Origin: Escherichia coli
Lineage (GTDB): Bacteria; Pseudomonadota; Gammaproteobacteria; Enterobacterales; Enterobacteriaceae
DNA: 64,000 nucleotides
Assembly: GCF_003018255.1 (NCBI RefSeq)
Contig: NZ_CP027440.1
Direction: 5' to 3' (one strand)
Shown here one piece after another: positions 39,101 to 42,100 of the stretch (positions within the stretch are counted from its first letter, which is position 1; each line of letters opens with the position of its first letter). The position numbers are program-made.

Positions 39101-42100
39101 GTTTATTCACTCTATACGCCATCAGAGCAGTTTTATCCGCCTGGCGCACCAATCCCGTGGCCATCAGATACCGTTCCGTCTGGCTATGCCCTGATGCAGG
39201 GGCAGACTTTTGACAAATCTGCATACCCGAAACTTGCAGCCGCTTATCCGTCAGGCGTGATCCCTGATATGCGTGGCTGGACGATTAAGGGCAAACCTGC
39301 CAGTGGTCGGGCCGTATTGTCTCAGGAACAGGACGGCATTAAATCGCACACCCACAGCGCCAGCGCATCCAGTACGGAATTGGGGACGAAAACCACATCG
39401 TCGTTTGATTACGGCACTAAATCCACGAATAACACCGGGGCGCACACGCACAGTGTGAGCGGTACAGCCGCAAGTGCCGGAAACCATACTCATAGTGTCA
39501 CAGGCGCATCAGCAGTCAGCCAGTGGTCACAAAATGGGTCAGTACATAAGGTAGTGTCTGCGGCCAGTGTGAATACAAGTGCTGCAGGAGCGCACACTCA
39601 TAGTGTCAGCGGCACAGCTGCATCTGCAGGTGCTCACGCACATACTGTCGGTATTGGTGCTCATACGCACTCTGTTGCGATTGGCTCACATGGACACACC
39701 ATCACCGTTAACGCTGCTGGTAACGCGGAAAACACCGTCAAAAACATCGCATTTAACTACATTGTGAGGCTTGCATAATGGCATTCAGAATGAGTGAACA
39801 ACCACGGACCATAAAAATTTATAATCTGCTGGCCGGAACTAATGAATTTATTGGTGAAGGTGACGCATATATTCCGCCTCATACAGGTCTGCCAGCAAAC
39901 AGTACCTATATTGCACCGCCAGATATTCCGGCTGGCTTCGTGGCTGTTTTCAACAGTGATGAGGCATCGTGGCATCTCGTTGAAGATCATCGGGGTAAAA
40001 CGGTTTATGACGTGGCTTCCGGCGACGCGTTATTTATTTCTGAACTCGGCTCATTACCGGAAAATGTCACCTGGTTATCCCCGGAAGGGGAGTTTCAGAA
40101 GTGGAACGGCACAGCCTGGGTGAAAGATGCAGAAGCAGAAAAACTATTCCGGATCCGGGAGGCGGAAGAAACAAAAAACAGCCTGATGCAGGCAGCGAAT
40201 GAGCATATTGCGCCACTTCAGGATGCTGTGGATCTGGAGATCGCAACGGAAGAAGAGGCGTCGTTGCTGGCAGCATGGAAGAAGTATCGGGTGTTGCTGA
40301 ACCGTGTTGATACATCAGTAGCACCGGATATTGAGTGGCCTGCTGTCCCTGTTATGGAGTAATCGTTTTGAGATACGCCGCATACACGTTGTATGCAATA
40401 ACGTGCTGCGGCTTGGTAAATTTTAGCTAGTTTCAGCAGGAGACATAAAAAACTTCAATATAAGATTAAGCATCACGTATTGCCAATCTGATTTTTGACT
40501 GATACCAATTGGGGCCTTCTGCAATTATTTCTTCCTCAACATGCATGATGGGATGCATTTCAATTTCAGAGTTTTTGACTTTTAGATCTAGTCCATATTT
40601 TTTTGAAATTTGTAAAACTTCATTTTTGAAATCCTTATCTGCGAAAGGTGAAATCCTTATTTCTTCCAACAGATTGTTAAGAGATACAGGGACTAGTTTT
40701 CCCTTTACAGGTGGAGTGTTAAAGGTATTCTCTTGAAAAATAGCTCTAAACTCTTTTTCGTATTCGAAAGATGGTCTCTTGTTAAAGAATACATCTGATT
40801 CTGGATTGTATTGTTTTATCCAGAAATTTTTGACGTATTTTACGTGTTTTAATTGTAGTTTGTTTAAATTATTATTTTCAAGTTGGCTTTGGAGGTTTTT
40901 TTTCTTTGATTTTATGACAACGCCTTTAGCGGGGTTTTTACAATACAGCTTCCACATAGCTTCAGATTCATGTTCGTTACAATGCCAGCAACTTATATAT
41001 GTCCTCTCGCTTATTTCCTTAAGTGTCTTTAAATTGAATGCCATGAAAGGATCTAAGTCCATGCCGGCACCATGAGTAGCGCATAGTTTTTCCTGTGTCT
41101 CAATGAATTTTTTATAGCCAGTATGTCCCCAAGCAAATTCACCTTCGAATGGATCTTCAAAATTTTTTGCTGAGCAAAAAAATAAAGCATTTTGTTCGAG
41201 TAACATAGAGAATTTCTCTATGTCAAGGTATCGCCATATATACTCAGTGTGCATGATAGCTCCTTGCAATATAACTATTTCTATCTGTTCATTTGTACTT
41301 AAAAAGGATTGAGTAGCCTGAACAGTTCTATCCGTAAATATACCAGATAGAAGAGTTGTACAATAACAAATCCTCCGTATAAGAACCAGCCATAATAGTC
41401 TGGTTCTTAAGGTTTTTTTTTGTTCGAGGGGGGGGGGCTACGATTCGTCCCCATATCGGCGATAAATTAGGCTTGTACCAACGCTTCTGTTTCTGTGAGT
41501 GAAATCTGATAGCGTTTTACTGCCTCAGCAAAGGCGTGCGCGGCATCTGCATTTGATACCATATATTCTTCAGTTACCCCTGTTTGAGAATGGAAAGTAA
41601 TATTTCCATAAATGCAAATAGGGATTTGGTAGTTGTCTTTAAAACGACGGTCTGGTGAGCCATTCTTATTCGTTTTCGCCCATGTATAACCATCTATGCG
41701 TGAGTCACTGGGAACACCTTCTTCCTCATGGAATCTTAGATATTCTGAACTAATTTGTAATTCGCGTAAATCAATCAGAGCGAATGCTCCATCAGCTCGT
41801 GGTATGACTGCAACTCCAGGATAAAGCAAAATATCGTCTCCATTTACATTTTCAAACCTCATCGCACGCCCTGTAAATTGAATGAGATCCGTTGAACTAA
41901 AATCAAAGGTAACTGGGTGACGATTAACAGACCGGGTTGCTAATGTTCTTTCAGCAAACTGGTCTGTAGCTTTATCTGCAGTAATATCCCATTTTTTGAC
42001 ACTCGATTTTAACATATCAAATGCATGGACCATCGCTGCATATGCGCGCTGTGAAGCATCACTGCTCTCGAATGTTATGGCTATTTTTGTGCTGTCTTCC

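Follow-up and report, generated by a model that had tools for sequence, protein, structure and literature searches.

A mobile cassette in the b region of a lambda-like Escherichia coli prophage encodes a protein with a predicted ADP-ribosyltransferase fold and a possible role in phage defence

The window analysed here, a 64,000-nucleotide stretch of Escherichia coli contig NZ_CP027440.1 (assembly GCF_003018255.1), contains in the b region of a lambda-like prophage a gene whose product is predicted to adopt an ADP-ribosyltransferase (ART) fold. An earlier note, made from the sequence alone, had pointed to an AT-rich open reading frame (ORF) of 267 aa directly after tfa on the opposite strand, and an ORF of this length, counted from a TTG codon, is found in the ORF listing of the window at 40466..41269 of the minus strand. 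It is convergent with tfa (39778..40362, plus strand), and its end lies 103 nt beyond the tfa stop codon. The GC content of the cassette that contains the gene (defined below) is 33.6%, compared with 49% for tfa, 55% for stf and 47% for the whole window. The ORF is a real gene and is intact in the window. Pairwise comparisons with four orthologues, among them copies from a P2-like prophage, a genomic island and a fourth contig, gave ratios of nonsynonymous to synonymous substitution rates (dN/dS) of 0.07-0.11 at dS values of 0.6-1.6, which indicates purifying selection.

Judged from the sequence, the real start codon is probably ATG 41254 and not the TTG, since a Shine-Dalgarno element, AGGAG (41260..41264, minus strand, read from the sequence), is located 5 nt upstream of this ATG and since orthologues start at the same position. 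The coding sequence then occupies 40466..41254 (minus strand) and specifies 262 aa followed by a stop codon, so that the previously given length of 267 aa holds for the TTG-started ORF but probably not for the protein. All orthologues of 80-83% identity are 262 aa long and have their start codon (GTG or ATG) at this position; in three cassettes from three different elements AAGGAG is unchanged and the start codon (ATG or GTG) is exactly aligned. The RefSeq/PGAP model, WP_224142731.1, starts at M22, 21 codons after ATG 41254, and comprises 246 aa (41207-41254 omitted); the invariant W7-R8-Y9 of motif I is therefore lost from the annotated protein, and cloning from this annotation would give a truncated product without motif I. 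The UniProt entry A0A6N8NGG7 is an over-extended model of 328 aa.

The protein was next compared with collections of profiles, sequences and structures. Pfam returned a weak match to DUF2971 (PF11185; E 8.6e-6, 27.4 bits, residues 100-170 against positions 1-88 of the 89 in the model); of 48 close family members, 22 match the same model at E<=0.001 and 42 at E<=0.1. The PGAP product name is "DUF2971 domain-containing", and a Foldseek search of AFDB50 produced 1532 matches at E<=1e-3 with template modelling (TM) scores of about 0.7-0.9, nearly all named DUF2971. In PHROGs, the protein matches phrog_34615 (E 6.6e-29), whose annotated function is unknown. Four hidden Markov models (HMMs) of the PADLOC candidate PDC-S31 match as well, namely PDLC04993 (3.5e-20), PDLC04994 (8.6e-11), PDLC04991 (1.6e-8) and PDLC04990 (1.6e-7), the matches being given by E value and not by PADLOC's own thresholds. 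NCBIfam contains no match for the protein or for its three neighbours. A library of representatives of 1.84 billion proteins yielded 6830 relatives at E<=1e-3, of which 3524 reach E<=1e-10; they are mostly 235-270 aa long, and the alignment spans residues 5-236. Searches of PDB sequences with the single protein and with a profile found nothing relevant; the link to ARTs is visible at the fold level only. A fold search of BFVD gave weak matches only (TM 0.39), to uncharacterised phage proteins.

Residue conservation, scored over 146 family representatives clustered at 50% identity, is concentrated in a small set of positions. Near-invariant are W7-R8-Y9, D34, E37-G38, C89-W90(-H91), E96-S97, W101, Y104, Y140, K159-R160, E166-x-E168-x-R170, G185, P203 and S229. 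Motif I, W7-R8-Y9-L10 (41225..41236, minus strand), lies on predicted strand 1; W is present in 142/146 representatives, R in 138/146 (K in 4/146) and Y in 137/146, while position 10 is occupied by M in 94, L in 26 and I in 10. Motif II, C89-W90-H91 (40982..40990, minus strand), is on predicted strand 3, with C in 137/146 (S in 8), W in 146/146 and H in 127/146. Motif III, E166-K-E168-F-R170 (40745..40759, minus strand), found at the start of predicted strand 7, corresponds to the ExE motif of ARTs (E166 in 145/146, E168 and R170 each in 146/146). FEDPFEGE, which had been singled out in the earlier note, is encoded at 41138..41161 (minus strand) and forms a loop of residues 32-39; it is a family motif and not a chance sequence, because D34 (146/146), E37 (144/146) and G38 (140/146) are invariant or nearly so.

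The predicted structure contains the split beta-sheet of the ART fold, and DSSP analysis of the model places the three motifs on strands 1 (residues 5-11), 3 (residues 85-91) and about 7 (residues 168-174). The ART-type fold is predicted with high confidence and covers nearly the whole 262-aa model, which has no delivery domain; a C-terminal beta-hairpin is limited to close relatives. We propose on the basis of this model that the protein is a cytoplasmic single-domain enzyme with an ADP-ribosyltransferase fold, structurally closest to DarT. It differs from DarT in several respects: identity is 9-14%, no Pfam DarT match is obtained, and the model has a large helical insert (residues 46-83) and an extra C-terminal region. 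One may speculate that the insert and the conserved region 185-236 are candidates for regulation.

In a 2025 survey of ARTs from Legionella (PMC12522546), DUF2971 is an ART of the HYE clade, close to DarT and AbiGi and marked by HYx / Yxx / ExE (its Table 1); a bioinformatically defined sister family of ART-like proteins, Lsan_0116, belongs to the RSE clade and has motifs [RK]Y[ML] / [CS]WH / ExE on active-site strands 1, 3 and 7, [CS]WH standing in place of STS. According to the same source, distant homologues of the two families overlap, Lsan_0116 occurs in Bacteria, Archaea and viruses, and its substrate is suggested to be "protein or bacteriophage DNA" (PMC12522546). When compared by these published motifs, the protein encoded in the window has all three Lsan_0116 signatures, as R8-Y9-L10, C89-W90-H91 and E166-K-E168. 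It shares with DUF2971 the HMM match, the RefSeq name, the fold and the ExE motif, but motifs I and II, which are HYx and Yxx there, are RY[LM] and CWH in this protein and its 146 relatives. Likewise, motif I has H in the HYE clade, where the survey (PMC12522546) places DarT, versus R here. By sequence motifs, then, the protein is an exact match to the Lsan_0116 signature, whereas its motifs I and II depart from those of DUF2971. A canonical DUF2971 protein of IncI plasmids (WP_000106196.1) aligns with it only marginally (E about 2). The Lsan_0116 signature is present though Pfam DUF2971 catches the protein. The resemblance to DUF2971 proteins pointed out in the earlier note is therefore right at the Pfam level, where the model match, the PGAP name and Foldseek agree, and can be refined below that level, the HYx / Yxx signature being absent. 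The gene also differs from Lsan_0116 genes in one respect: most members of that family are predicted to be secreted, while the present gene is part of a prophage cassette and has no delivery signal.

The limits of the cassette can be drawn from two sides. Megablast against phage records showed that homology to phage lambda stops at 40411; only the tfa end, shared with lambda, was matched. In the Enterobacter copy and the island copy described below, homology sets in at about 41372, 118 nt before the ATG, and continues for roughly 50 nt beyond the stop codon. The whole mobile cassette thus occupies about 960 bp (40412..41372, minus strand), which leaves no room for a second protein. Between tfa and the ART-like gene, which converge on each other, a stable hairpin (40377..40412; centroid -20 kcal/mol, z -2.5, plus strand) is the probable terminator of the tfa/lambda module, to which we assign it because it lies inside the stretch homologous to lambda. 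The upstream region of the cassette, about 118 nt (41255..41372, minus strand), is partly conserved with orthologous cassettes (alignments A2 and A3) and presumably contains the promoter. An extended -10 element found there by hand (TGGTATATT) was dropped, as it is not conserved in orthologous cassettes.

The earlier note had also placed a T9/G10 tract in the promoter region of the gene. The tract does exist upstream, T9 at 41413-41421 and G10 at 41428-41437, between the stop codon of the neighbouring DUF4236 gene and a hairpin (41381-41408), but this whole segment (41381..41437) belongs to the 3' flank of the DUF4236 gene and is not part of the cassette. Both tracts differ in length (T8-9, G7-10) between genomes whose identity is otherwise at least 99.7%; other E. 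coli lineages have the non-repetitive GGTTAAAACCCC in place of C10 (coding strand) and an A-run of 7-8. We therefore rejected T9/G10 as a promoter element of the ART-like gene, for it is outside the conserved upstream region and absent from other lineages, and is unlikely to be a required element; the tract is confined to this lineage and unstable in length, unless its variation reflects homopolymer sequencing error.

The best-matching RefSeq record contains an intact lambda-like prophage integrated in icd, with the gene in the b region at the right end. Among complete E. coli genomes, the ART-like gene is present in 121 of 5426, always on the chromosome and in single copy, at 98.4-100% identity among the matches listed. 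Outside E. coli, its relatives occur in very different surroundings. An 81% orthologue stands alone after ogr at the end of an Enterobacter P2-like prophage (L006-8), and an 83% orthologue is located in an island next to a methylase-HD (MTase-HD) protein and an Mrr-like gene (L019-20). Distant homologues occupy the old/tin slot of a Pseudomonas P2-like prophage (L009), the early region of a prophage beside a second DUF2971 gene and an SMC/AAA_15 ATPase (L010), the interval between terS and terL of a lambdoid prophage, where the gene is co-oriented with phage genes (L015), the edge of an integrative element (L016) and a small chromosomal islet (L014); others are found on Bacillus, haloarchaeal and further plasmids. 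A tblastn search of 50,697 phage records found a homologue in one, an Acinetobacter phage, adjoining terS and again co-oriented with phage genes. The description as a single gene holds for the solitary cassettes of other elements but not strictly for E. coli, in which every carrier has a co-oriented DUF4236 gene, 212 nt upstream in the window.

In related E. coli prophages (L011, L012 and L013), the position after tfa is filled by a McrBC-like pair, by a reverse transcriptase and SLATT pair, or by an S-adenosylmethionine (SAM) methyltransferase, the McrBC-like pair being located at the same icd site. Because of these replacements, the post-tfa slot of lambdoid prophages is regarded as an exchange point, often one for defence cargo, and the present cassette adds evidence for this. 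One of these prophages (L012) also has a macro-domain gene between stf and tfa.

The gene contains an A8 tract (T8 on the plus strand; 40896..40903, minus strand, codons K118-N120) that is a frameshift hotspot. In 17/60 sampled E. coli carriers (about 28%), the match is 788 nt long, one base short, and in 5/5 such loci inspected (L023, L025, L026, L027 and L029) an A7 tract was confirmed. The ORF of A7 copies ends at 129 aa, before the ExE motif, or at 32 aa in L029, which has a second indel; carriers of A7 include ST131 O25b:H4. At least two haplotypes carry the A7 allele: three private single-nucleotide polymorphisms are common to L027, which has A7, and L028, which has A8, and slippage at A8 therefore happened more than once. 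Recurrent frameshifts at A8 fit a costly or toxic gene, or on/off switching; homopolymer sequencing error is also possible.

Two known systems bear on what such a protein may do. Aristaios, a lactococcal plasmid protein of 316 aa with DUF2971, is an experimentally shown single-gene abortive infection (Abi) system, which stops phage transcription and protein production. Like the gene studied here, it is solitary on a mobile element, belongs to Pfam DUF2971 and has a predicted ART fold, and it serves as the functional model for the mechanism proposed below. PDC-S31 is one of 145 "guilt-by-embedding" candidates of the PADLOC PDC systems, a single-gene candidate found embedded in known defence systems, and its HMMs match the protein. 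The link to defence suggested in the earlier note thus has a basis in the PDC-S31 match and in Aristaios, and the present protein is, on sequence grounds, a candidate for such an activity.

By analogy with Aristaios, the gene may be a single-gene, prophage-borne ART for abortive infection or superinfection exclusion that is triggered by infection, a reading we consider evenly balanced as a whole. Its parts differ in strength. Purifying selection on an intact gene, the fold, the conserved R / CWH / ExE triad, the movement of the solitary cassette among mobile elements and its place in a slot with known defence genes in related prophages are shown by the analysis; catalysis, target, trigger, the abortive outcome and the means by which the protein is kept harmless are inferred. 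We think it likely that the protein is a catalytically competent ART, and we lean slightly towards an anti-phage role. That the target is a nucleic acid is put forward tentatively; a target in nucleic acid or gene expression is suggested by the closeness of the fold to DarT and Tpt1 together with the block imposed by Aristaios. According to the proposed mechanism, the gene would be a self-contained accessory cassette ("moron") of a lambda-like prophage, transcribed in the lysogen from a promoter of its own and opposite in direction to late phage transcription. Until a superinfecting phage triggers it, the protein would remain inactive, restraining itself without an antitoxin. Once active, it would carry out NAD+-dependent ADP-ribosylation of nucleic acid (single-stranded DNA or RNA) or of a component of the gene-expression machinery. 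The outcome would be a shutdown of phage gene expression or replication and abortive infection, by which sister lysogens would be protected.

Several observations count against this proposal. The Pfam match to DUF2971 is weak, and the Pfam models of DarT and AbiGi do not match, that of DarT giving nothing at E<=10. The link to Aristaios, which has 316 aa and a Gram-positive host versus 262 aa here, consists of shared Pfam membership only, and a tblastn search of PLSDB plasmids at E<=5 found no Lactococcus match. PDC-S31 is explicitly a prediction from embedding, and no description of it was found in the searchable literature. No DarG or macrodomain gene lies beside the cassette in any context examined, and PADLOC reports PDC-S31 only; an antitoxin or macrodomain partner is absent, and control of toxicity is thus unexplained. 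A consensus promoter scan of 41255-41466 found no site. Finally, co-orientation of homologues with terminase genes in two phages would also suit a function that serves the phage.

This last point leads to the strongest of the alternatives, an ART that works for the phage itself, either by modifying the RNA polymerase, ribosomes or defence proteins of the host in the course of lytic growth or as an anti-defence factor. Phages are known to encode ARTs, and Alt, ModA and ModB of T4 modify host targets in lytic growth; homologues in the Acinetobacter phage and in the lambdoid prophage L015 are indeed co-oriented beside terminase genes. In the window, however, the gene runs antisense to the late operon, behind a conserved upstream region of its own. 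The family, moreover, is frequent outside phages, in islands, plasmids (archaeal ones included) and small chromosomal islets, but reaches just the one phage record mentioned above, and PDC-S31 was picked up embedded in host defence systems. We regard a phage-serving ART as unlikely.

A second alternative would make the ART-like protein the effector of a two-gene system, with the DUF4236 protein as sensor, regulator or antitoxin. The DUF4236 gene (41467..42669, minus strand; 400 aa, Pfam DUF4236 E 5.6e-21) is on the same strand, 212 nt upstream, and its linkage to the ART-like gene in E. coli is perfect: each of the two genes and the tfa-gene-DUF4236 junction are all found in 121 genomes, at three or more integration sites (icd, tRNA-Pro near yejM and tRNA-Thr near proA). 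Such linkage is better explained by one block that spreads through recombination in tfa, and spread of the ART-DUF4236 block as a unit by this route is most likely. Orthologues of the ART-like protein at 81-83% identity have no DUF4236 neighbour, while DUF4236 orthologues at 87-93% identity are solitary in Klebsiella prophages at smpB, where they follow a tail-fibre gene, and in a Serratia islet, a solitary gene being present in a Phaeobacter islet too. Cassette homology ends 118 nt upstream of the ATG, after the hairpin that closes the DUF4236 module, and copies of the DUF4236 gene beside a frameshifted ART-like gene remain intact. Since both genes occur singly elsewhere, the two-gene system was downgraded, and we now give it little credence.

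No better placed is a function without an anti-phage role, in which the protein would be a selfish toxin or addiction module promoting stable maintenance of the mobile element, or else a secreted effector. The toxin-like ART fold and the frequent inactivation by frameshift would agree with a toxin, and the literature predicts 80% of Lsan_0116 members to be secreted effectors (PMC12522546). The cassette of about 960 bp, however, is too small to hold a protein antitoxin in addition, and the protein has no delivery domain, the fold filling nearly the entire model. The family is found in non-pathogens and archaea, and the effector predictions of the survey are generic and caveated by its own authors (PMC12522546). 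We consider this explanation improbable as well. The weakest alternative, a decaying or silent passenger that has no function in the present strain, could appeal to AT-rich foreign DNA that may be silenced, the empty promoter scan and the frameshifted copies, but is very improbable given that the window copy is intact with all catalytic-type residues present and that copies in four different elements show a dN/dS of about 0.1.

Returning to the infection-triggered ART, what was already known is that the family is in RefSeq, is described as ART-like, is a PADLOC candidate and has a phenotypically validated Pfam relative, Aristaios. The present analysis adds a corrected start codon, a signature of the Lsan_0116 type, the limits of the cassette, the hotspot slot, the finding that T9/G10 should not be counted as a promoter element, and the polymorphism at A8, on account of which about a quarter of E. 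coli carriers, ST131 strains included, hold a frameshifted copy. Work on the family so far consists of bioinformatics (Lsan_0116/DUF2971 and PDC-S31) and the mechanism-free phenotype of Aristaios. If active, the cassette would be a compact E. coli model for a family of 6830 cluster representatives and could answer what an ART with an R / CWH / ExE triad modifies, how it is restrained without an antitoxin and what triggers it. A bolder and, at present, doubtful reading is that the WRY / CWH / ExE clade (about 3500 representatives at E<=1e-10) comprises distinct stand-alone, antitoxin-free DarT-like nucleic-acid ARTs that sense phage by themselves, with A8 slippage possibly switching expression on and off in E. 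coli prophages. Were it true, the gene would give a very large, uncharacterised family of immune enzymes, which have an unusual RSE-type site on a DarT-like scaffold, its first tractable member in E. coli.

As for the DUF4236 protein, it is unusually conserved for the product of a mobile-element gene: identity is 93% in Klebsiella, 87% in Serratia, Pectobacterium and Yersinia, 79% in Edwardsiella and 67-69% in Rhodobacterales, and the Pfam domain match is limited to the N-terminal 55 residues. Beyond it lie an ORF of 209 aa (43115-43744, plus strand) with a weak GIY-YIG match (Pfam E 0.005; phrog_16890) and a gene for a DUF3800 protein (44238-44972, plus strand) with a weak N-terminal match to PADLOC PDC-M04A (E 6.5e-5). 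The whole 7-kb b region is common to only 30 genomes, versus 121 for the ART-DUF4236 block.

In the best-matching RefSeq record, the order of prophage genes is int/xis, exo-bet-gam, the cI-like repressor gene, O/P, Q, lysis, terminase, head, tail, J, lom, stf and tfa, after which come the ART-like gene, the DUF4236 gene, the 209-aa ORF, the DUF3800 gene, the icd remnant and iraM. The window is collinear with the genome of strain LD91-1 (NZ_CP042585.1) but 2672 bp shorter between bet and the tail genes, and therefore holds a slightly different variant of the NZ_CP042585.1 prophage. Beside the cI-like repressor gene (6075-6803, minus strand), the window contains an ORF of 348 aa (4493-5539, minus strand) and an overlapping ORF of 153 aa (5533-5994, minus strand). 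The counterpart of the 348-aa ORF in the matching RefSeq record is annotated as a Ser/Thr protein kinase, and the placement of the two ORFs next to the repressor gene may resemble that of the repressor-linked exclusion kinases of other lambdoid phages.

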